Source: Candidatus Gottesmanbacteria bacterium (GTDB taxonomy: Bacteria > Patescibacteriota > Microgenomatia > JAMCYU01). From it: 64,000 bases of DNA. The translations under genes were made by a program, and so were the position numbers. Within the stretch, counting starts at the first letter, position 1; each line of letters begins with the position of its first letter. The notes beneath the pieces were generated by a model. That model was given only the letters and a program-made list of their open reading frames with translations, made no database searches and was not told the origin of the DNA. Where the stretch lies: positions 130,683-194,682 of the forward strand of contig JAZDMI010000021.1 of NCBI GenBank assembly GCA_043801155.1, written 5' to 3'. This document shows, piece after piece, positions 43,312-54,443 of the stretch.

Positions 43312-43602
43312 ATGAAACTATTTATCGATACCGGAGATAATACGAAAACCATTGTTGGTTTAGATAATATTAGGTTAGAAAAGCCGACTGGACCGGATAA
43401 GTCACAGCAAGTCTTGGTTTTGATTGACCAATTACTTAAGGAAAACCATAAGCAGATTAAAGATATTACTGATATAGTAGTAAATATTGGTCCCGGTTCC
43501 TTTACCGGGCTTAGGGTCGGAATAACCGTGGCTAATACTTTAGCCTGGGTATTGAAAGTTTCGGTTAACGGAAAAGTAGCGGTTGAACCTCACTATGATT
43601 AA
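43312..43602 (+). CDS. tsaB: TsaB-like protein, N-terminal-domain-only (96 aa)
   Basis: YeaZ-like N-terminal motif GPGSFTGLRVG; lacks the C-terminal half. Confidence 0.5.
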   Translation: MKLFIDTGDNTKTIVGLDNIRLEKPTGPDKSQQVLVLIDQLLKENHKQIKDITDIVVNIGPGSFTGLRVGITVANTLAWVLKVSVNGKVAVEPHYD

Positions 43603-44200
43603 AAAATTACTATTTTTAACTCCATTATTAATATTAATCCTGTTTCTATACGGTGAAATAATTAAAAAAGAACTTGCTTATTGGTCTGATGACTTATGGG
43701 GGCAAAAACATTCTCTTGATAGTTCTTCCCAATGGCCTGAATCAGGAGTTATTCCGATTACGCCCATTAATAGAGATTTTTGTCTGGTGATTCCAAAAAT
43801 TAATCTAAATTCAGCCATAGTTAGTATAAATTCTGAAAATACTCCAGAGAATTTAACCGTGTTAAAGCAAGGATTGATACACACCAGGGAGAGTGCTTTT
43901 CCTGACCAAAGAGGACCAATTATAATTCTTGCCCATCTCCCTGATAATATTGTAAATTTATTGCATACCAATGTTTCATCATATCTATTTAATAAAATAG
44001 TTATTAATGACGAAATTGACTTATTTTACCTTAGTAAAAGGTATAAGTATTATGTTACCTATAAGATAATATTATCTACTGAAGATACAAAGGCCTATAT
44101 TAATAGTATCCAGAACAAGGATGTTTTAATATTACAAGCTTCCTATCCCCCAATATTACCATTTAAAAAATTGCTGATAATAGCTGATAAACAGAACTAA
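43583..44200 (+). CDS. Sortase paralog with the catalytic Cys replaced by Ser (TLxTC -> LILQAS) and Arg->Lys
   Basis: Aligns throughout with the sortase at 50894-51493. The catalytic His region is retained (IIILAH), but the C->S and R->K changes fall at the catalytic positions. Confidence 0.55.
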   Translation: MNLTMIKKLLFLTPLLILILFLYGEIIKKELAYWSDDLWGQKHSLDSSSQWPESGVIPITPINRDFCLVIPKINLNSAIVSINSENTPENLTVLKQGLIHTRESAFPDQRGPIIILAHLPDNIVNLLHTNVSSYLFNKIVINDEIDLFYLSKRYKYYVTYKIILSTEDTKAYINSIQNKDVLILQASYPPILPFKKLLIIADKQN

Positions 44201-44275
44201 AGCTCTATAATATTTGACATAGGCCATTTGTATCGTTATAATCTATCCATATCTACTTACAAATTCTAGATTTAT

Positions 44276-47200
44276 ATGAACCATTTAGGAAAAGATAAAG
44301 TTTTTGCCTGGCTTTCCGTGTTTTCTCTGACACTCCAAATATTAAACGGAGTGTTTTTATTTTCTCCAATTTATGCACAGGAGCAAACTCCGCAATCATC
44401 TCCAGATACTATGGTTACACCCTCTCCTTCAGTTGAACAAACAAGTAATATTGAAGTTACTCCTATACCAGATGTTTCACCGACACCTGAAATAACACCG
44501 GAACCATCGCCGAGTTTAGAACCAACACCAGTTGCAACACCAGACGTAACTCCGATTCCTGATACAACAGTTTCTCCTAATAATCAACCAGAAGCGCCTC
44601 CATCTGCACAAGCGTTAGATCAAACTCAAGCATCGCCGGAACCGGGTATTTCTCCTTCAATATCTCCTTTGGCTGAACCAGATAAAGAAGATGGCCATAT
44701 TTCCGCGGCAATTTTAAAAGATACTAAAGCAGATTCAATCGATTTAATTGATTTGGATTTTCAGGCAGAGGGAAGCGCCGTCATAAATACTGATAAATTA
44801 GATTATGCCCCAACTGATACAGTTTTAGTCACTGGCACGGGATTTTTACCCGATAAAACTTACACTATAGAAATTACTTCTCAAGATCTACCAGCTGTAG
44901 CTTTTAATGCAGAAGTTAAATCTGATTCTGCTGGTAATCTTTTTTATTCATATCAACTCGATGGAAATTACAGGCCAAATTATAAGGTCGAGATAAAAAG
45001 ACACACAGAGATAATTGCATCAACTACGTTTACGGATTCTGTTCCCTTCGGACCAACATCGTCACAAAATATTGCATGTATGGGTGATCAACCAACTGCT
45101 CCTAGTGGACTTAACTGTACTGCAAATGATATTCAAATTGCATCTGTTGATAATATACACATTGTAGCCAGCGGTCCTGATCCTGCTCACCTTACTCCAA
45201 CAGCAAGTACAGAGTGTGATTATCCTGGTCAATATATACAATTTACTGCAAGTTGGCATGTAGAATCAACGGCTACTTCCCGGTATAATGTGGGACTTTG
45301 GTTTGCTAACCAAGGTCAAACAAACGCACTTCACGGAATGTGTTCAGCTTCTACTCTTCCGAGTTCTCCTAATCCTCCTTTTTTTGAAGATACCGATGAC
45401 ACCTGTGGAGATATCCATAGCGGCGAGATAGGAACAGTAACTCCTGATATTACCGTAATAGCTCAATGTAATGCCGCACCGGGTACAAATCAATTAAGCC
45501 TTCCTTACTGTACAAGCTGGGATCAGAATGAACGAGCAGGGAATGGTTGTAATAATCCCTCCGGAACTGTACCTGGAACTCCATCGAAATGTAGTTGTGA
45601 TAACGGATTCACAGTCCCAATTATTGTTCCGCCATCAATTGAAGTGGTGAAGTCACTTTCACCGTCAAATGACCCAGGTTTATTTAATTTATTAGTTAAT
45701 ACCGTTACTAAAAAAACAGATGCTGGAAATGGCGGGACAACGGGTAAAGTTGGAATAACATTAGGAAGCAATAGCTTTGGGGAAACAGCCGGAACAGGTA
45801 CAAATTTAAATAATTATACTTCAGTTGCATCATGTGTTCTTAGGGGAACACAAACAGCCGTTTCTGCAAGTCAAAGTGGCAATACTTGGACAATAGCTAA
45901 TATTACCAATGGTCAGGATATTCTTTGCACGATTACTAATACAAGGATTAACAATGCCTCAATTACTATAGTTAAAGATGCACAACCTAATAATTCACAA
46001 GATTTTCCTTTTACAACCACAGGATCTGGACTTTCTAGTTTTAGTCTGGACGATGATTCGGATCCAACGCTTTCAAACACAAAAGTCTTCACAGATTTAG
46101 GAAGTGGTATTTATACAGTTACGGAAGGGGTAGTAAGCGGTTGGACTACCAGTCAAATTAACTGCGTTGACCCAACACAAAATTCTTCCGGAAATCTTCC
46201 GACAGCTCCAGTCGCTACTATAAATTTAGCAGCCGGAGAATCGGTTACTTGTACTTTCATTAATACCCGCGATCAAGGCACGATTGAATTAAAGAAAGTC
46301 TGGTCAGGTACTGGCGGACAAACAACCTTAAATATTGGAACCACTCCTGCCGGAAACGATACCGATACTCAATTAACCGGAGTTGATGGCGTCGCCCCAT
46401 TAACAACGGGACAAAATCAAGTTAATACGGGTACATATTACATGTCAGAAGCCGGAGGTTTAGGAAATTACAGCTCATCAGCTCTTTCCTGTTTCAATGA
46501 TGCTAATAATAACGGAACGAATGATGGGGAATCAAACGTTACAGTGGGAATAAATAATAGTGTTGTTGTGGGTACAGGCCAGCATGTTATCTGTTCTTTT
46601 ACAAACACTCGTAATACCGGCACCATAAAAGTAATAAAAGATGTTTCTCCAGATGATCAAGGAGCAACATCTTGGGATTTTGCTATTAGTGGACCAACTA
46701 ATAACTCAGCGACATTAGTTGATGGTGGACAATCAAATGCTTTTACCTCTGACACAGGAAATTATACAGTTACAGAGACCGCACATACTGGTACCAATGG
46801 AAGTAATTACAATACAACCTATTCTTGTTCAGTAGTGACGAACGAAATTACTCATGGTAGCGGTAGAATTGCCACGTTCGCTTTAGCAACAAATCAGAAC
46901 GTTGTTTGTACATTCACCAATGCACTGCGGACCGGTCATATTATTGTTGATAAAATTACAGTGCCTTCCGGTGATGCTCAAAGCTTTACCTTTGCTACAA
47001 CCGGAACCGGTTATACAGGATTCAGCTTAACAGATGTTTCAACTCCGAACGATCAAGAACTTTTGATTGGAAATTATAGTGTAACAGAAACAGGAGTTAA
47101 TGGTTGGACATTAACAAATACTTCTTGTGTCAGCTCAATTCAAGATACAGAAACTGCCAATAATCTCGAGCTTGATGCAGGCGAAACAATAACTTGTACA

Positions 47201-50200
47201 TTTACCAATACCAAAAAAGGTTCAATTACTGCTTGTAAATACAATGATGTTAACGGCAATGGTGTAATAAATCAGGGTGATGATCAACTTCTTGATGGTT
47301 GGGAGATGACTTTAAATCCCGGAAATATAAAGCAATCAACAGTTAATGGTTGTACGACTTTCAGTAACTTGTTACCAGATAATTATTCTATTATTGAAAC
47401 TCTTCAGCCTGATTGGTCAAATACTTCTGGTGGGTTGACACAAAATATTTCTCTTACTGCTGGTGAGAATTCTACGGTTAATTTTTTAAATTTTGAACTT
47501 GGGGATATTACTGTATGCAAATATAATGACTATAACGGTAATGGTCAATACGAACCGCAAGATGATTTACCATTATCAAATATTTCGATTAATCTTTTTC
47601 AAGCGATAAACCTTCTTGATACAAAATCAACTGGTTTAAATGGCTGCGTTACTTTTAACGGATTAACAGCTGGTCAATATCGCGTCGCTGAAGATTATAA
47701 CGATCCAGATTTACTTGGATATTACTCGACAAATAATATAACCCATTATGATGTTAACATTGTCTCTGGTTCACAAGAAAACAGAATCTTTTTAAATACC
47801 CAATATCGGACTATTTCTGGCACAAAATACCATGATTTAAATAATAACGGAGCAAGAGATGCCGGGGAACCAGGTCTAGAAAATTGGACAATTTTCATTG
47901 ACTATAACAATAATAATGTTCTTGATGCCGGAGAACCATCAACCACCACCAATGTTAATGGTTATTACGAATTTACCAATTTAGCAGCTGATTCCTATAC
48001 CATAGCCGAAGGACTTAAACCTGGTTGGAACCAAACTCAACCTTCAACTGGTCATTATGATGTTGATGTTCATACGGCAGTTACCTCGACTGGTAATGAT
48101 TTTGGGAACCGCGGAGCATTATCCATTTTTGCATGTAAATTTGAAGATAGTAATGGTCTGCTTGCTGGTGGAAATTTTACACCAGTTACCAACTGGGACT
48201 TTACTCTCGGACAACAGACACAGAACACCGGATCCGGTCATTGCACAACCTTTAGTAATTTAATCCCAGGAGGTTATACAGTTAGCGAACCGTCACCTTT
48301 GCCCAATGGTTGGTTTTTTGCCGATGATTCACAAGGAAGCCGTTATGTAGTTCTGATTGATCAGAATAAGACAGTAAATTTCTTTAATTATCGAAAGGGT
48401 TCAATTACCGGTCAAAAATTTAATGATTTAAATGGTAACGGCAGTAAGAATGGGGGAGAATCTGGTTTACCCGGGTGGACAATTCATTTATTAGATACAA
48501 ACGATAATGTATTGCAGACAACCTTAACGGATGCTAGCGGAAACTTCATTTTTACCAATCTTGATCCAGGGACTTATCGTATCCGGGAAGTCGGACAAAC
48601 CAGCTGGCTACAAAAAACCACAAATCCGATTGATATTGTTTTAAGTAGTAATCAAGCTGTTACTGATATTGATTTTGGTAATCAGGGTAGGGGAATGATT
48701 ACAGTCTATAAAAATGTCGATACCAACGGAGATGGTCAAGTAGAAAACACCGGAGTAACTAATTGGACTTGGGATATTACCGCGGGCGAACAGAATATCG
48801 CCACCGGTCAGACAAGAACGCTGACGGCCGGAAATTATACAATTTCTGAAGACCAACAGGCTAATTATCATATAGTTGATTTAACCTGTGGGCAAACCAG
48901 TCTGGGGGCAATCGAAACAACCAATTTTGACCTAAACCCCGGTCAAGAAATTATTTGTACTTTTACAAATGCACGTGATACCGGAACAGTAATCGTTCAT
49001 AAGTTAGTGGATAGCAATAGTGATAATCAGTATGAGGGTGGAGATGACGATGCCAATAAATTAGGATTCAGGTGGAGTTTGAATAATGAAAATCCAGCCA
49101 CTCGAGATATGGGGACCAATGCCCAAGTAACTACGATAGACAGTCATCTTATTAATGAGAATAATGTACCCGGATATGTCTTTACCGGCTGGTTTAGCGG
49201 AGAAGGAACTTGTGGGGATTTACCTGCCAACCAACTTCAGCTTCCAGTGGACATTAGTCTTATAAGAAATGGTCAATCGAGATCAATTACGCTGTGTAAC
49301 CAACTTCAGAATCCAATTCTCACCATAACGAAGTCCAATAATGCTGGTGGAGATAAAAATCCCGGTGATAATGTTTTATTTACATTGACTGTTACCGCGA
49401 CACAAAGTGCAGTTAATAATGTTATTGTTTATGATCTTCCAGCTGGAGGGTTTAAGTATCGCAGCGGCTCCTGGACTGCCAACTCAAATGTACATGGTGT
49501 TCTTAGTATTCCCGAGCCTAATTATACATCTTCCGGTAAGTGGATTTTGGGAAATATGGCCAAAGACGAGACGATTACACTTACTTATCTTGCTGATATT
49601 GACAGCGGACAACAACCCGGTCTTTACAAAGATTTAGCTTGGGCAACCGGAAAATCGCTGTCTGATACAGATGTCTTGGCTCTAGCAGTTAATCCCGGGT
49701 ACTGGGATACTAATTATGTCGGTACGCAAGTCAATATCGTGAAAGAGCAGCAATCAGGTCTTACCGTTAATGTTGAAGGCAATAAAGAGGAACAGGTTCT
49801 TGGCGCCTCAACTCAATTGCCGGCGACCGGCGCCCAGAGTAAATGGCTTATTGCCGCCTTATTATTGCTAATTCTTGGATTAGTATCTATAATTTCGTCT
49901 ACTTTTATGAAAAAAGGAAAAAAACACTTATTCTTAATTGCTATTCTATTTGTTTTAATGAATATTATGTTAGCTGGTAATGTACTGGCGGCTAGCTTAA
50001 CGGTTCGGATTGAAGAGCCAAAAACACCGACTAATCAAAATAATTTTAAAATTAATTTTGTTACCCTGGATATTGCCGGCCGTGTTATTACCGCAAATTG
50101 TTTTGTTAAAGGACCTTCAGACGCAGGTTTTAGTCAATTTGGACCTGATATAAGTCTTCCTAATGGAGGAAATAATGGAAATTGTAATGTTGATTCAACC

Positions 50201-50887
50201 ATAGTTAATAATCCCGGTACTTATCAATTTTATGTTAGAGCATCGGTTACCGGCGATCCGTCTCAAGATAGTCAGATAGTTTCAACTGAATACCAAAATA
50301 GTATTCCGGGGAATCCGGCTAATTATCAAAAAACTAAAAACCTATGCACTTACCATATAAGTTTTAAGACAGCTGACGATGGTGGAAAGACGGTTAAGGT
50401 AGAGCTTTATCGTTCGGAGAATACCACATTCAATGTGGATTCCGGTTCTCGTGTCCAATCAATGGCACTAGGTTCTAATACCGAAGGCAGTTTTGATGAT
50501 AGTCCACCCGACTGTAGTAAGACATATTATTATGGTGTACGTGCTTTTGATAGTTTCGGCAATGGTTCAGGTTTTGCCGGTGATTCATTTACGACAACCA
50601 CGACCGTGACTATTGCCGCGTCTCCATCAGCTGCTTCCGGAGCAATTCCTATTTCTGGGGCAGTAACAGGATCAGTAGTCGGTGGCGGTACAGGCGAAGA
50701 AGTAGTCGGTGCAACACCAGGCAGTGAAATTGCTTCTCCAGCTCCGGGGACTACGGCTGAAGGTCAGGTGCAAGGTGTACAAGCAACGCAGTCTGGCTTA
50801 CTAAATAAAAAAAACCTGGCAATTTTTGCTGGCATAATCATTGTTCTGGGTCTTCTTTATTATTTCTATCGGCGAAACCAGGCTTAG
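44276..50887 (+). CDS. Giant (2203 aa) sortase-substrate surface adhesin. Signal peptide, Pro/Thr-rich stalk, more than 12 CnaB/SdrD-B-like repeats (..C.FTNTR.. and YNDxNGNG Ca-type motifs), and an internal LPATG sorting signal, followed in-frame by a second signal-peptide-led ~330-aa module with its own C-terminal anchor
   Basis: Read directly from the translation: LPATG at nt 49817-49831, then a hydrophobic stretch, then MKKGKK-hydrophobic-VLAAS (an internal ATG at 49907 with no intervening stop). Confidence 0.8.
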   Translation: MNHLGKDKVFAWLSVFSLTLQILNGVFLFSPIYAQEQTPQSSPDTMVTPSPSVEQTSNIEVTPIPDVSPTPEITPEPSPSLEPTPVATPDVTPIPDTTVSPNNQPEAPPSAQALDQTQASPEPGISPSISPLAEPDKEDGHISAAILKDTKADSIDLIDLDFQAEGSAVINTDKLDYAPTDTVLVTGTGFLPDKTYTIEITSQDLPAVAFNAEVKSDSAGNLFYSYQLDGNYRPNYKVEIKRHTEIIASTTFTDSVPFGPTSSQNIACMGDQPTAPSGLNCTANDIQIASVDNIHIVASGPDPAHLTPTASTECDYPGQYIQFTASWHVESTATSRYNVGLWFANQGQTNALHGMCSASTLPSSPNPPFFEDTDDTCGDIHSGEIGTVTPDITVIAQCNAAPGTNQLSLPYCTSWDQNERAGNGCNNPSGTVPGTPSKCSCDNGFTVPIIVPPSIEVVKSLSPSNDPGLFNLLVNTVTKKTDAGNGGTTGKVGITLGSNSFGETAGTGTNLNNYTSVASCVLRGTQTAVSASQSGNTWTIANITNGQDILCTITNTRINNASITIVKDAQPNNSQDFPFTTTGSGLSSFSLDDDSDPTLSNTKVFTDLGSGIYTVTEGVVSGWTTSQINCVDPTQNSSGNLPTAPVATINLAAGESVTCTFINTRDQGTIELKKVWSGTGGQTTLNIGTTPAGNDTDTQLTGVDGVAPLTTGQNQVNTGTYYMSEAGGLGNYSSSALSCFNDANNNGTNDGESNVTVGINNSVVVGTGQHVICSFTNTRNTGTIKVIKDVSPDDQGATSWDFAISGPTNNSATLVDGGQSNAFTSDTGNYTVTETAHTGTNGSNYNTTYSCSVVTNEITHGSGRIATFALATNQNVVCTFTNALRTGHIIVDKITVPSGDAQSFTFATTGTGYTGFSLTDVSTPNDQELLIGNYSVTETGVNGWTLTNTSCVSSIQDTETANNLELDAGETITCTFTNTKKGSITACKYNDVNGNGVINQGDDQLLDGWEMTLNPGNIKQSTVNGCTTFSNLLPDNYSIIETLQPDWSNTSGGLTQNISLTAGENSTVNFLNFELGDITVCKYNDYNGNGQYEPQDDLPLSNISINLFQAINLLDTKSTGLNGCVTFNGLTAGQYRVAEDYNDPDLLGYYSTNNITHYDVNIVSGSQENRIFLNTQYRTISGTKYHDLNNNGARDAGEPGLENWTIFIDYNNNNVLDAGEPSTTTNVNGYYEFTNLAADSYTIAEGLKPGWNQTQPSTGHYDVDVHTAVTSTGNDFGNRGALSIFACKFEDSNGLLAGGNFTPVTNWDFTLGQQTQNTGSGHCTTFSNLIPGGYTVSEPSPLPNGWFFADDSQGSRYVVLIDQNKTVNFFNYRKGSITGQKFNDLNGNGSKNGGESGLPGWTIHLLDTNDNVLQTTLTDASGNFIFTNLDPGTYRIREVGQTSWLQKTTNPIDIVLSSNQAVTDIDFGNQGRGMITVYKNVDTNGDGQVENTGVTNWTWDITAGEQNIATGQTRTLTAGNYTISEDQQANYHIVDLTCGQTSLGAIETTNFDLNPGQEIICTFTNARDTGTVIVHKLVDSNSDNQYEGGDDDANKLGFRWSLNNENPATRDMGTNAQVTTIDSHLINENNVPGYVFTGWFSGEGTCGDLPANQLQLPVDISLIRNGQSRSITLCNQLQNPILTITKSNNAGGDKNPGDNVLFTLTVTATQSAVNNVIVYDLPAGGFKYRSGSWTANSNVHGVLSIPEPNYTSSGKWILGNMAKDETITLTYLADIDSGQQPGLYKDLAWATGKSLSDTDVLALAVNPGYWDTNYVGTQVNIVKEQQSGLTVNVEGNKEEQVLGASTQLPATGAQSKWLIAALLLLILGLVSIISSTFMKKGKKHLFLIAILFVLMNIMLAGNVLAASLTVRIEEPKTPTNQNNFKINFVTLDIAGRVITANCFVKGPSDAGFSQFGPDISLPNGGNNGNCNVDSTIVNNPGTYQFYVRASVTGDPSQDSQIVSTEYQNSIPGNPANYQKTKNLCTYHISFKTADDGGKTVKVELYRSENTTFNVDSGSRVQSMALGSNTEGSFDDSPPDCSKTYYYGVRAFDSFGNGSGFAGDSFTTTTTVTIAASPSAASGAIPISGAVTGSVVGGGTGEEVVGATPGSEIASPAPGTTAEGQVQGVQATQSGLLNKKNLAIFAGIIIVLGLLYYFYRRNQA

Positions 50888-50893
50888 AATCAG

Positions 50894-51493
50894 GTGAAAA
50901 ACTTGCCTAAAATCCTTACACTTTTTGGTTTTCTATCGATCTTAACCTCGGGAATTATTTTGATTTTTACTTTTTATCCGGTTTTTAATACCGAAATAAA
51001 CTACGAGATTAAATCAGTAATTAAACCATTTATTAAACAATCTCTCAAACCTATTGACACGGACTTTGGGATTGTCATTCTCAAAATTGATGCTAACAGC
51101 AAAATTGTCGCTAACGTTGATCCTTATAACTCAAAGGAATACCAATGGGCTTTAACCAAAGGTGTAGCCCATGCCCGCGGATCTTCTTTTCCCGGAGAAC
51201 TTGGTAATGTTTTTATTTTTTCTCACTCATCAGTGAACTTTTATGAAGCAGTCCGCTATAATTCGATTTTTTACCTTCTTAATAAACTGGAAAAGGGGGA
51301 CGAGATTGATTTATATTACAAAGACAAGAAGTTTAAGTATCTGGTTAATGAGAAAAAAATGGTCAATTCCGGAGATATTCAATACTTATCCGGTAAAAAT
51401 TCAGATAGAACCGTTACCTTGATGACTTGCTGGCCGCCAGGTACTGATTTAAAAAGATTAATAGTCATAGCTGATTATTCCTCGATAAATTAA
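50894..51493 (+). CDS. Sortase (canonical His / TLxTC / Arg)
   Basis: N-terminal TM segment, IFSHSS His region, VTLMTCWPPG Cys motif, and LKRLIVIAD Arg. Confidence 0.8.
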   Translation: MKNLPKILTLFGFLSILTSGIILIFTFYPVFNTEINYEIKSVIKPFIKQSLKPIDTDFGIVILKIDANSKIVANVDPYNSKEYQWALTKGVAHARGSSFPGELGNVFIFSHSSVNFYEAVRYNSIFYLLNKLEKGDEIDLYYKDKKFKYLVNEKKMVNSGDIQYLSGKNSDRTVTLMTCWPPGTDLKRLIVIADYSSIN

Positions 51494-51559: not shown

Positions 51560-53224
51560 ATGCCTATTAATCAAGTAACCTTAATAAAACTTATTGCTGA
51601 TAGCGGTTTAATCTCTAAGGATGATTTGCGCAATGCCCAAAATACTGCCGATCACTTAGGAAGTACTCGAACCGATATTCTTATTCGGCAAGATTATCTT
51701 AAAGAAGAAGACTTGGGTAATCTATTAAGTAAATTTTTTAAAGTAAAGTATATTGATTTAACTAAAATTGATATACCCATAAAGACTCTTAATTTAATTC
51801 CCGAGTCTTTAGCGGTTGATAGTCGGGTTATTGTTTTTGCCAAAAAAGACGATCAAGTAATGGTGGCAATGGATGACCCTTGGGATCTTGAAGCGATAGA
51901 GTTAGTAAGAAAAACCATTGGTTCGCGGACTAATATTATTCCCCACGTAACAACCCCGGAAGGTATTAAAGAGGCCCTTAAGTTCTATAAAAAGCGGACT
52001 AAAGAAGAGATGGAAGGGCAAATTGAAATAACCAAGACAAAAGACTTATCGGCAATTACGATTGTCAATCAATTGCTAGAAGATGCATGTCGGCAAGAGG
52101 CATCTGATATTCATATCGAACCTTTATCTTCCCAACTGTTAGTTCGATTACGGACTGATGGCGTATTGCATGATCATATGTTACTAGCTAAAGAAATGCA
52201 TCCGGCCATTGTTGCCCGGATAAAAATCCTTTCCGAACTAAAACTTGATGAACAACGTCTTCCGCAGGATGGCCGTTTTTCCTTTGAGACGAAAATGGGA
52301 GAAATAATTGCTCTTCGTGTCTCAACTGCTCCGACCGTATACGGAGAGAAAATAGTCTTAAGGATTCTTCATGATGCTATTTCTAAATTTAATTTAGATG
52401 AACTAGGTTTAATCTCCTCTGATCAAGAAATTATCAGCCGTGTTATTCAACGAACACACGGGATGTTTTTGGTGACCGGTCCGACCGGATCTGGCAAGAC
52501 AACAACTCTATATACAATTTTAGGACTTCTGAACCGACCGGGTGTAAACATTATGACGATTGAAGATCCGGTAGAAAATAGAATTCCCCGGGTAAACCAG
52601 ATACAGGTAAATCCGCAGATTAATCTGGATTTTGCTTCAGGTTTGCGATCGATGTTAAGGCAAGACCCGGATATTATTATGGTTGGTGAAATTCGTGATC
52701 GGGAAACGGCTGTTATTGCTATTAATGCTGCCATGACCGGTCATTTAGTCTTTTCTTCAGTTCATGCCAATACGGCTGCCGGAGCTATTCCAAGAATGAT
52801 CGATTTAGGAGTTGAACCGTTTCTGTTGGCTTCAACCGTTAATATGGTAATCGCCCAACGATTAGTGAGGATCCTTTGCCCGAAATGCCTGGAGGAAATA
52901 AAAATTAGTCCATTAATAAATCAAAGACTGGAAAAATCACAAGCATTTATTTCTCCGGATATTAAAAAGAATTTAACCAGGGATTTTCGAGCCAAAGGAT
53001 GTTCAAACTGCTACTTTACCGGATTTCGTGGCCGGATGGGTATTTTTGAAATTATAAATTTAGACATCCATCTTCAGGAGTTAATAATCAACAAGTCCTC
53101 CAGCAATCTGATATGGCAGGCAGCCCGGGAGGACGGAGCCAGAAGTATGTTGGAAGACGGTTTACTTAAAGCAAATCGGGGGGTTACGCCAATTGAAGAA
53201 GTCTTCCGGGTAATATCAGAGTAA
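51560..53224 (+). CDS. pilB: Type IV pilus assembly ATPase PilB (GspE family)
   Basis: T2SE N-domain, Walker A GPTGSGKTTT, Asp/His boxes, and a Zn CxxC...CxxC motif. Confidence 0.9.
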   Translation: MPINQVTLIKLIADSGLISKDDLRNAQNTADHLGSTRTDILIRQDYLKEEDLGNLLSKFFKVKYIDLTKIDIPIKTLNLIPESLAVDSRVIVFAKKDDQVMVAMDDPWDLEAIELVRKTIGSRTNIIPHVTTPEGIKEALKFYKKRTKEEMEGQIEITKTKDLSAITIVNQLLEDACRQEASDIHIEPLSSQLLVRLRTDGVLHDHMLLAKEMHPAIVARIKILSELKLDEQRLPQDGRFSFETKMGEIIALRVSTAPTVYGEKIVLRILHDAISKFNLDELGLISSDQEIISRVIQRTHGMFLVTGPTGSGKTTTLYTILGLLNRPGVNIMTIEDPVENRIPRVNQIQVNPQINLDFASGLRSMLRQDPDIIMVGEIRDRETAVIAINAAMTGHLVFSSVHANTAAGAIPRMIDLGVEPFLLASTVNMVIAQRLVRILCPKCLEEIKISPLINQRLEKSQAFISPDIKKNLTRDFRAKGCSNCYFTGFRGRMGIFEIINLDIHLQELIINKSSSNLIWQAAREDGARSMLEDGLLKANRGVTPIEEVFRVISE

Positions 53225-53228
53225 TTTT

Positions 53229-54443
53229 ATGGCTAAATATTCTTATATCTTGGTTAACCAAGAAGGAAAAAAAGAATCAGGACAAACAGATGCCTTCTCG
53301 CGTGACGAAGCCGCCAATCAGATAAAGCGGCCCGGATGGTTTATCACTTCTTTAGATAAAAAAATTAATTTTAATTTTGATCTACCTTTCTTTAAACGAA
53401 GCGAGAATTTTTCCTCTTTTGAAAGAATAATGTTTACCGATCACCTGGCATCGATGATTCGTTCGGGAACACCGATTATCGAAGCCCTGGAAATTTATAA
53501 CGATGAAAAAGGGAAAAAGAGGAAACTAATTATTGATAACATGGTTAAACAAATACAAAAAGGTAAACAACTGTCGACGGCGATGACTCTATATCCGCAA
53601 ACATTCTCACCACTTTATATTTCTTTAGTCCAGTCAGGAGAACTAACCGGTCGTCTGGATGAGACAATTGATTATTTGTCAAAAGACTTAAGACGGGAAT
53701 ATGAATTTAATGAGAATATCAGATCAGCCCTTTTTTATCCGGTCCTGGTTCTGATTGTGGCTCTATTGGTAGTTATGCTTTTAATAATGGTGGTTATTCC
53801 GAAAGTTTTATTACTGACAAAAGAACTGGGTAATGACATGCCGCCGGTCACCCGGATGGTAGCTTCGGTAGCCGATTTATTGACAAGGTTTGGGCCTTTA
53901 ATAATTTTTTTAATATTTTTAGGAATGATACTGATGCCGATAATCTTCAGTATCCCCGCGGCTAAACGTAAACTTGACCCCTATTTGTTAAAAATGCCAC
54001 TGGTCGGTTCGATCATCAGAAAATATATTTTGTCACGATTCTTGCAAATTGTTGGTAGTTGTTTAAAATACGGAATTCCATTAACGACAATTTTCCCGAC
54101 GATTGGAAATGTAGTTAGTAATGAAATATATCGTCAGGCGTGTAACCGGGTAGAGGCAAAAATAATTAGAGGCTTAAGCCTTTCCGAAGCGCTTAATCAA
54201 GAATTACCGACTGTCTTCCCCCGTGTGATTGTCAGAACGCTAAAAGGCGGCGAGAAAACCGGATCAGTGGATATGACTTGTTTAAGACTTTCCCGTTTTT
54301 TTGAGGATGATATTGACAGGCAACTTAAAAGAGTTACTGATCTTATTGAACCAATCTTAGTTGTTTTCTTAGGTATTGTTGTTGCCGTAATTGCTTTAGG
54401 AGCCATTGCCCCGATATATCAGTTGACATCAAGTATCAGATAG
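53229..54443 (+). CDS. pilC: Type IV pilus platform protein PilC (GspF family)
   Basis: Duplicated T2SF domains with 3 TM segments. Confidence 0.85.
   Translation: MAKYSYILVNQEGKKESGQTDAFSRDEAANQIKRPGWFITSLDKKINFNFDLPFFKRSENFSSFERIMFTDHLASMIRSGTPIIEALEIYNDEKGKKRKLIIDNMVKQIQKGKQLSTAMTLYPQTFSPLYISLVQSGELTGRLDETIDYLSKDLRREYEFNENIRSALFYPVLVLIVALLVVMLLIMVVIPKVLLLTKELGNDMPPVTRMVASVADLLTRFGPLIIFLIFLGMILMPIIFSIPAAKRKLDPYLLKMPLVGSIIRKYILSRFLQIVGSCLKYGIPLTTIFPTIGNVVSNEIYRQACNRVEAKIIRGLSLSEALNQELPTVFPRVIVRTLKGGEKTGSVDMTCLRLSRFFEDDIDRQLKRVTDLIEPILVVFLGIVVAVIALGAIAPIYQLTSSIR

Follow-up and report, generated by a model that had tools for sequence, protein, structure and literature searches.

A giant adhesin and an FN3-type membrane protein joined in one reading frame through an internal LPATG sorting signal: a probable polyprotein form of a surface cassette in Candidatus Gottesmanbacteria and other Patescibacteria

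Flavivirus polyproteins carry internal signal and stop-transfer sequences and are cut by signal peptidase. In bacteria, the Zmp proteins of pneumococci combine a signal peptide, an LPXTG motif and two hydrophobic segments with a proposed second signal-peptidase site (PMC3518915). Here we describe a 64,000 nt stretch of DNA from Candidatus Gottesmanbacteria (GCA_043801155.1, contig JAZDMI010000021.1, positions 130,683-194,682 of the forward strand; hereafter the window) in which a single open reading frame (ORF) of 2203 amino acids (aa) joins a giant adhesin to a second membrane protein through an LPATG sorting signal that lies inside the chain. We consider it probable that the continuous ORF encodes a polyprotein, and that cuts by sortase and by signal peptidase I on the outer face of the membrane would yield the same products as in relatives in which the two proteins are encoded by separate genes.

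The ORF is a 100% match to NCBI protein MFH0864170.1 (P0131 in our profile search), which is annotated as one protein, 'SdrD B-like domain-containing protein', of a Candidatus Gottesmanbacteria metagenome-assembled genome (MAG). Across all six frames of the 64 kb, its LPATG motif is the sole LPxTG with a hydrophobic run after it, and the support that hidden Markov models (HMMs) give to the sorting signal is borderline, with 19.2 bits against a cut-off of 15.9 for TIGR01167 and 18.7 against a cut-off of 20 for PF00746. The sorting signal is not C-terminal, since 326 residues follow it in frame as a second module. This module opens with an internal signal sequence (aa 1878-1905) that comprises a basic n-region (KKGKK), a 17-aa h-region and the site V-L-A/A and that does not stand at the N-terminus of the ORF as read, as it would do only if ATG 49907 too served as a start; after NVLA/AS a further 296 residues lead to the C-terminus, where a hydrophobic helix and the tail YRRNQA end the chain. 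A preliminary description of this stretch, made from its letters, had reported an internal LPATG sorting signal in a continuous 2203-aa ORF, a second signal peptide running from the ATG at 49907 (MKKGKK...NVLAAS) and a downstream FN3-like part with its own C-terminal transmembrane (TM) segment and YRRNQA. All of these features are where it placed them, and the downstream part contains two FN3 domains.

Sequence comparison places the C-terminal 326 aa in a large, unnamed family of the candidate phyla radiation (CPR). Searching a database with this segment gave 182 proteins. Each of the best 120 of the 182 (E 3e-89 to 4e-64) is a stand-alone protein, about 296-341 aa in length, and matches the segment end to end, from its own Met and signal peptide to its C-terminal anchor. 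The source names of the stand-alone homologues are only hypothetical proteins of Levy-, Gottesman- and Daviesbacteria and of Saccharimonadales, and searches of Pfam, NCBIfam and PDB sequence profiles with the FN3 module gave no matches. In an AlphaFold model (34 homologues, mean predicted local distance difference test score, pLDDT, of 78.8) the module consists of an N-terminal helix, two beta-sandwich domains (module residues 31-225, pLDDT mostly >90), a disordered stretch (234-297) and a terminal helix (301-325). Four Cys residues at module positions 65, 93, 147 and 203, two per domain, are invariant among 72 aligned homologues, a pattern that suggests one extracellular disulfide per FN3 domain, and the Ala at position -1 of VLA/AS is nearly invariant in the homologue alignment.

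We surveyed how this module is joined to what lies upstream of it at 76 loci (73 species-representative genome loci, L001-L003 and the window), walking upstream in the frame of the FN3 module. A two-gene layout is present at 31 loci among the 73 species-representative genomes, and in the closest homologues the gene order is adhesin with LPxTG, FN3 protein and sortase, to which L001 adds an upstream sortase paralogue. The adhesins of two-gene loci end with a classical sorting signal (for example LPATG...GVYLKRKYD and then the stop), and the adhesin stop falls exactly 8 nt past the ATG of the FN3 gene (xATGxxTAA; for example L001:8980-9010 and L003:8980-9010). This 8-nt overlap was seen directly in 26 of the 28 junctions with a start that our script could call, and the other two, L009 and L017, fit via a second ATG. 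Because the Shine-Dalgarno (SD) sequence of the two-gene loci (GGAGG or AGGA) is made of Arg and Lys codons of the adhesin's basic tail, one purine tract does double duty: it encodes that tail of the sorting signal and is the ribosome-binding site for the FN3 gene. The two-gene relatives show a strong GGAGG at the junction, in contrast to the SD-poor window, where an SD-like motif lies within 20 nt upstream of 10 of the 45 plus-strand gene starts.

The fused, in-frame layout was found in 40 of the 76 loci, the window included, with an LPxTG, a helix and a K/R segment upstream of the module as in the window. These loci span Shapirobacteria, Woesebacteria, WWE3, Saccharibacteria-like and other Patescibacteria. 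Each of them retains the LPxTG, as does each two-gene locus, and the loop between the two helices, 5-13 residues long, carries a net charge of +3 to +6 in every fused locus; the earlier suggestion that one basic cluster is at once the tail of the sorting signal and the n-region of the second signal peptide thus holds in all 40. Ahead of the first conserved strand, 39/40 fused loci and 29/29 two-gene loci have a small-x-Ala signal-peptidase site, and apart from hydrophobicity and charge the sequence of the hairpin is poorly conserved. Of the 72 loci with room for a gene directly 3' of the module, 71 have a homologue of the downstream sortase there, and the exception, L013, is a script artefact in which the sortase is adjacent too. 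A Met is present in the loop of 23 of the 40 fused loci, among them the window, and nine fused loci (L027, L032, L034, L035, L038, L055, L061, L069 and L075) lack ATG, GTG and TTG alike in the loop; in these nine the FN3 module can therefore be made only within the long chain. Metagenomes add eight fused loci, of which L083 and L088, from two Joint Genome Institute (JGI) metagenomes, share an identical junction. The Shapirobacteria MAG STF1_270 carries two fused copies on two contigs (L032 and L034) with the near-identical junctions KKSTFK and KKSAFK.

The same picture emerged from an exhaustive HMM profile search of 1.84 billion representative proteins, which gave 533 representative clusters at E<=1e-30. 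Among the best 150 of these 533 clusters, 95 have long representatives (410-3052 aa, median 1708) with the module at the C-terminus and 55 have stand-alone ones. The strict pattern LPxTG-TM-K/R-TM-AxA is passed by 86 of the 95 long representatives, and most of the others show the arrangement by eye; 33 of the 86 have no Met in the loop. A word-index search across the junction had returned no protein spanning both sides, which, given the fused proteins that the exhaustive search found, was a false negative of that method. The arrangement goes beyond chance because it recurs in frame in 39 other genome loci and in those 86 long representatives. Judged from these sequences, the fused layout is the commoner state of the family, and the joined layout is a recurrent real design across many CPR bacteria and not a sequencing error. 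The single polypeptide with two products that had been proposed for the window fits these comparative data, with the fused layout the family majority and nine loci devoid of a start in the loop. The consistent two-gene state that a comparison of orthologous loci might have given was not found, there being 31 two-gene loci against the 40 fused.

From the anatomy of the chain and its conservation across the family, and from established knowledge of how Sec substrates adopt their topology, of the positive-inside rule and of the action of sortases and signal peptidase I, we infer the topology of the chain, both cleavages and the steps by which it would mature. The N-terminal signal peptide would direct Sec export of the 1,813-residue adhesin of SpaA/SdrD type, and the helix after LPATG would act as a stop-transfer sequence. 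KKGKK would stay in the cytoplasm, satisfying the positive-inside rule for both adjoining helices, and the second helix would serve as an internal signal sequence that restarts translocation. The two FN3 domains and the stalk would be exported next, and the last helix, with YRRNQA, would anchor the end of the chain. The adjacent TLMTC sortase would cut LPAT/G and pass the adhesin to an acceptor, and signal peptidase I would cut VLA/AS to give the FN3 protein as a type-I membrane protein, the leftover being a two-helix hairpin of about 54 residues (G1852-A1905) that would be discarded. Because the products would equal those of the two-gene relatives, the fusion would leave the membrane topology unchanged; and the same products plus a spare hairpin would explain why the fusion is tolerated and recurrent, why the signal-peptidase site is kept and why the hairpin is conserved only in hydrophobicity and charge. 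In the window the purine tract still encodes basic residues (KKGKK), which may explain how easily an overlapping pair and a fusion interconvert. Both layouts, the 8-nt overlap as much as the fusion, speak for adhesin and FN3 protein being made together 1:1 beside the sortase.

Several points weigh against a processed polyprotein. That signal peptidase I cuts an internal signal and that sortase acts on a non-terminal one are assumptions made by analogy. The Met found in the loop of 23 of the 40 fused loci, together with a promoter-like site in the codons of the first helix, leaves possible room for separate initiation. The junction of the window holds T4, A6 and A7 runs, its nearest relatives are all two-gene, and its distance from LPATG to a conserved Pro is 201 nt against 202 nt in L001, L003, L004 and L015. 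A single NCBI assembly accounts for all records of the exact protein, whose continuity is read from assembled sequence. Finally, a split into basal fused and derived two-gene loci was recovered in 0 of 100 bootstraps of our tree of FN3 domains, a midpoint-rooted neighbour-joining tree.

The preliminary description had envisaged a different fate for the downstream part, in which sortase cuts LPAT/G and signal peptidase does not cut, leaving a stable 3-TM protein with an FN3 ectodomain. The three hydrophobic helices and the basic loop that this calls for are present, and cleavage of internal signal sequences is context-dependent. However, the small-x-Ala site is as strict in the fused loci as in the two-gene loci, in which this segment forms an ordinary N-terminal signal peptide, and a hairpin conserved in hydrophobicity and charge only is what would be expected of a discarded linker. 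We consider a stable 3-TM protein unlikely; the conserved site points to a type-I FN3 protein and a discarded 2-TM hairpin as the probable outcome.

Somewhat less doubtful, though we still rate it as rather improbable, is dual expression, in which the long ORF is real and yet the FN3 module is also, or mainly, made from ATG 49907 through an internal promoter or internal initiation. A Met occurs in the loops of the fused loci well above the expectation for segments of 5-13 residues, and it is present in all three fused loci that are nested in the two-gene clade (the window, L029 and L040). A sequence TTGCTA-17-TATAAT ends 14 nt before ATG 49907, and from the sequence it is a candidate internal promoter for a transcript of the FN3 protein and the sortase, though only a lead: promoter-like matches in this AT-rich region number 39 against a shuffle expectation of 30.2 +/- 6.4, a weak excess. 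The preliminary description had noted, correctly, that neither a stop nor an obvious ribosome-binding site separates the two parts. Since only 10 of the 45 starts of the window have an SD-like motif, its absence before ATG 49907 is uninformative and no obstacle to a start there in a genome that seldom uses SD sequences, and we have dropped it as an argument against internal initiation. The frequent loop Met, the promoter-like site and the rare use of SD sequences may thus be pointers to a start at ATG 49907, none of them decisive. On the other side, ribosomes that translate the adhesin run into no stop codon, so the fused chain arises in any case. A loop Met is missing from 17 of the 40 fused loci; nine of these have no start codon of any of the three kinds there, so the module works without a start of its own. 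Of the 86 pattern-matching long representatives, 33 likewise lack a loop Met. The counts of Met are, moreover, inflated by shared ancestry.

Whether the fusion in the window itself is genuine was weighed from its position in the tree and from the fine structure of its junction. Of 100 bootstraps, 83 place the window among two-gene taxa and 58 make it the sister of L001; two other fused loci are likewise nested in the two-gene clade, L040 in 99 and L029 in 74 of 100. From this we infer the direction of change: the layout has switched several times, and the window looks like a secondary re-fusion. No relative above ~50% identity was found, the best being 49% in species-representative genomes and 47-49% in metagenomes, and a contig index queried for exact copies of the 2203-aa and 326-aa products gave none. 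In the window LPATG and the ATG are 90 nt apart, 13 fewer than the 103 nt of the nearest relatives, and 111 nt separate the ATG from the conserved Pro, 12 more than the 99 nt of those relatives. The junction has neither the relatives' TAA nor their R/K codons before the ATG. In a MAFFT alignment the purine tract of the window, AAAAAAGGAAAAAAA (49910-49924, inside the MKKGKKH codons), stands opposite the tail and SD tract of the relatives and reads KKGKK.

These comparisons bear on an artefact in which two true genes were merged by a one-base homopolymer error; in its most coherent form the T4 at 49903-49906 stands for a true T3. On that reading the adhesin would stop at ...SIISSTL-TGA, with an ATGA overlap, and ATG 49907 would open a second gene with an ordinary MKKGKK signal peptide. 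Such an error would be in keeping with nearest relatives that are two-gene, a spacing net 1 nt off theirs, homopolymer runs on either side of the ATG and a single assembly on record. However, the difference from the relatives is not one slip, since it consists of blocks of -13 nt and +12 nt with no TAA and no R/K tail before the ATG. The sorting signal of the T3-corrected adhesin would have no basic tail, a condition unseen in 31/31 two-gene relatives, and among single-base corrections T4 to T3 is the only one that gives a coherent two-gene state. We modelled other slips, in which a -1 shift gave ...KKTLILNCYSICFNEYYVSW and then a stop and deletion of one A gave an adhesin ending ...KKGKNTYS and then a stop, and we rejected A6 or A7 indels as a source of an artefact since they would leave the FN3 module with no usable start ahead of the h-region. 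KKGKK also resembles the loops of the fused class, such as FKKGKM (L085) and KKSSKK (L035), and junctions of this class turn up again in independent assemblies and make up most of the family. We regard an artefact as very improbable. The earlier alternative of a lost stop that fused two genes therefore stands in part: as evolutionary history it agrees with nearest relatives that are two genes with a ribosome-binding site, and as a sequencing artefact it is probably wrong in view of the -13/+12 nt junction.

If the polyprotein is processed as we favour, the FN3 protein might also be the partner in the sortase reaction, receiving the adhesin at its new N-terminus or at a lysine on its surface, or taking it over in a fixed 1:1 complex; we offer this as a speculation with little probability of being right. 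Were it true, a polyprotein would be cut and rejoined outside the cell to give a membrane-anchored, wall-independent adhesin, and the strict linkage of adhesin, FN3 protein and sortase would serve 1:1 stoichiometry and co-localisation. One candidate acceptor, the lysine of a 'PK(S/T)PTN' motif near the mature N-terminus taken as a pilin-type acceptor, is not supported: K39 is present in only 82% and K142 in 88% of sequences, with E, A, Q or V in a WWE3-like branch, and the fold is a plain FN3 and not the CnaA or CnaB of pilins. Attachment through the new N-terminus of the FN3 protein is possible and compatible with the failed lysine test.

Table 1. Features of the window at and around the 2203-aa ORF. 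Hydropathy values are mean Kyte-Doolittle scores; / marks a predicted cleavage site.
Feature	Coordinates	Strand	Remarks
Sortase-fold paralogue without catalytic Cys	43583..44200	+	Pfam PF04203, E 3.3e-8
Sigma-70-type perfect consensus TTGACA-17-TATAAT	44214..44242	+	12/12 match, 34 nt upstream of ORF start; pattern match only
ORF	44276..50887	+	2203 aa, stop codon included in coordinates; adhesin, membrane hairpin and FN3 membrane protein; no in-frame stop
N-terminal Sec signal peptide	44276..44377	+	aa 1-34; MNHLGKDK, hydrophobic run, IYA/QEQ (predicted site); h-region hydropathy 1.58
Adhesin body	44378..49816	+	1,813 residues; repeated prealbumin-like domains; Pfam SdrD_B 3.1e-30, SpaA_4 1.1e-24, SpaA 1.6e-20, also SpaA_2 and SpaA_3
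LPATG sortase motif	49817..49831	+	aa 1848-1852; followed by AQSK
TM1, sorting-signal helix	49844..49906	+	WLIAALLLLILGLVSIISSTF; 21 aa; hydropathy 2.42
Promoter-like TTGCTA-17-TATAAT	49865..49893	+	10/12 match; in TM1 codons
Predicted cytoplasmic loop MKKGKKH	49907..49927	+	starts at in-frame ATG 49907 (Met1878); net charge +4
TM2, h-region of internal signal sequence	49928..49978	+	LFLIAILFVLMNIMLAG; 17 aa; hydropathy 2.69; aligns with signal peptides of stand-alone homologues
c-region NVLA	49979..49990	+	predicted signal peptidase I site after Ala1905 (VLA/AS)
Two FN3-like domains	49997..50581	+	four invariant Cys; RAFDxxGNGS motif
Disordered Ser/Thr/Pro/Gly/Glu-rich stalk	50606..50797	+	pLDDT <50; length-variable, aligns poorly
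TM3 and short basic tail	50807..50884	+	..LAIFAGIIIVLGLLYYFYRRNQA; predicted helix, hydropathy 2.33; tail YRRNQA
Active-type sortase (predicted)	50894..51493	+	N-terminal TM, His, TLMTC, Arg; Pfam Sortase 3.4e-21
pilB (T2SSE, E 3e-126) and pilC (T2SSF, E 1e-51), type IV pilus genes	51560..54443	+	directly 3' of sortase cassette

A sortase-fold gene lies on either side of the ORF (Table 1). The downstream sortase scores below the cut-off of every sortase class (class_C_sortase 59.3 bits vs 160) and is closest to the sortases of two-gene loci, sharing 68% identity with that of L001. Where the downstream sortase has TLMTCWPPG, the upstream paralogue reads LILQASYPP in the window and LILQTTYPP in L001; its His is kept. 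L001 has a copy of this paralogue in the same position (234-836, 46% identical), and from its sequence the upstream gene looks like a conserved pseudo-sortase beside the adhesin gene. At the position of pilB and pilC, L001 has genes for a subtilisin-like protease and a CLIPPER-domain protein. Within the loop codons, 49916-49925 (GGA AAA AAA C) forms an in-frame A_AAA_AAA slippery heptamer, after which the -1 frame would run for 18 codons more (TLILNCYSICFNEYYVSW) and then stop.

If these readings hold, a cell-wall sorting signal need not be terminal and, with a re-insertion helix, can link two extracellular proteins with the topology unchanged, a linker that CPR evolution would have used hundreds of times. 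The family is a natural fusion and fission series in which a purine tract serves as tail, loop and SD sequence, and it lends itself to tests of sortase and signal peptidase on internal signals. Annotation pipelines name the long proteins by their adhesin domains alone and so miss the second protein inside. The conserved, uncharacterised three-part surface cassette of giant adhesin, FN3 stalk protein and sortase is a candidate attachment module; in the window it adjoins type IV pilus genes, and its hosts live by attaching to other cells.

Set beside known systems, the junction shares with the canonical C-terminal sorting signal (TIGR01167/PF00746) an LPATG, a 21-residue helix, a Lys cluster and a sortase next door; in contrast, it lies 326 residues short of the C-terminus and its basic cluster is a loop between helices, not a free tail. 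With the SpaA-type sortase pilus and adhesin clusters of Actinobacteria and Firmicutes the locus has in common SpaA/SdrD_B domains, an LPXTG protein and flanking sortase genes. The window differs from these in its CPR host, in an obligatory FN3 membrane partner, in a sortase that scores far below the class-C cut-off and in having no YPK(N), a search of the 2203 aa for the pilin motifs YPK or [FWY]PK[NTS] having found none. The two-gene relatives are translationally coupled overlapping pairs, with their fixed 8-nt overlap and an SD sequence within the upstream coding sequence, whereas the window has an in-frame junction instead and its tail-plus-SD tract is read as the KKGKK loop.

Flavivirus polyproteins likewise alternate stop-transfer and re-initiation helices and are separated by proteases on the lumenal or outer face, whereas the window holds a bacterial chromosomal gene and one of the two proposed cuts would be made by a sortase transpeptidase. 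We found no description of the CPR cassette or of such internal LPXTG signals in open-access papers and preprints. The closest known analogue, by analogy of layout and not by homology, is the pneumococcal Zmp/IgA1-protease arrangement of LPXTG, two helices and second signal-peptidase site: in both, an LPXTG stands ahead of a membrane hairpin, the second helix of which is proposed as a second signal peptide, and a large extracellular part lies downstream. In Zmp the LPXTG is near the N-terminus and the downstream protease is the functional domain, whereas here the 1,813-residue adhesin precedes the LPATG (residue 1848), a motif and Pfam scan of the 2203-aa ORF found no HEXXH motif or peptidase domain, and what follows the hairpin is a conserved protein in its own right, encoded by a stand-alone gene in relatives. 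The locus is thus one case of a widespread, apparently undescribed and probable polyprotein version of a surface cassette conserved in CPR bacteria, with an analogue in streptococci.

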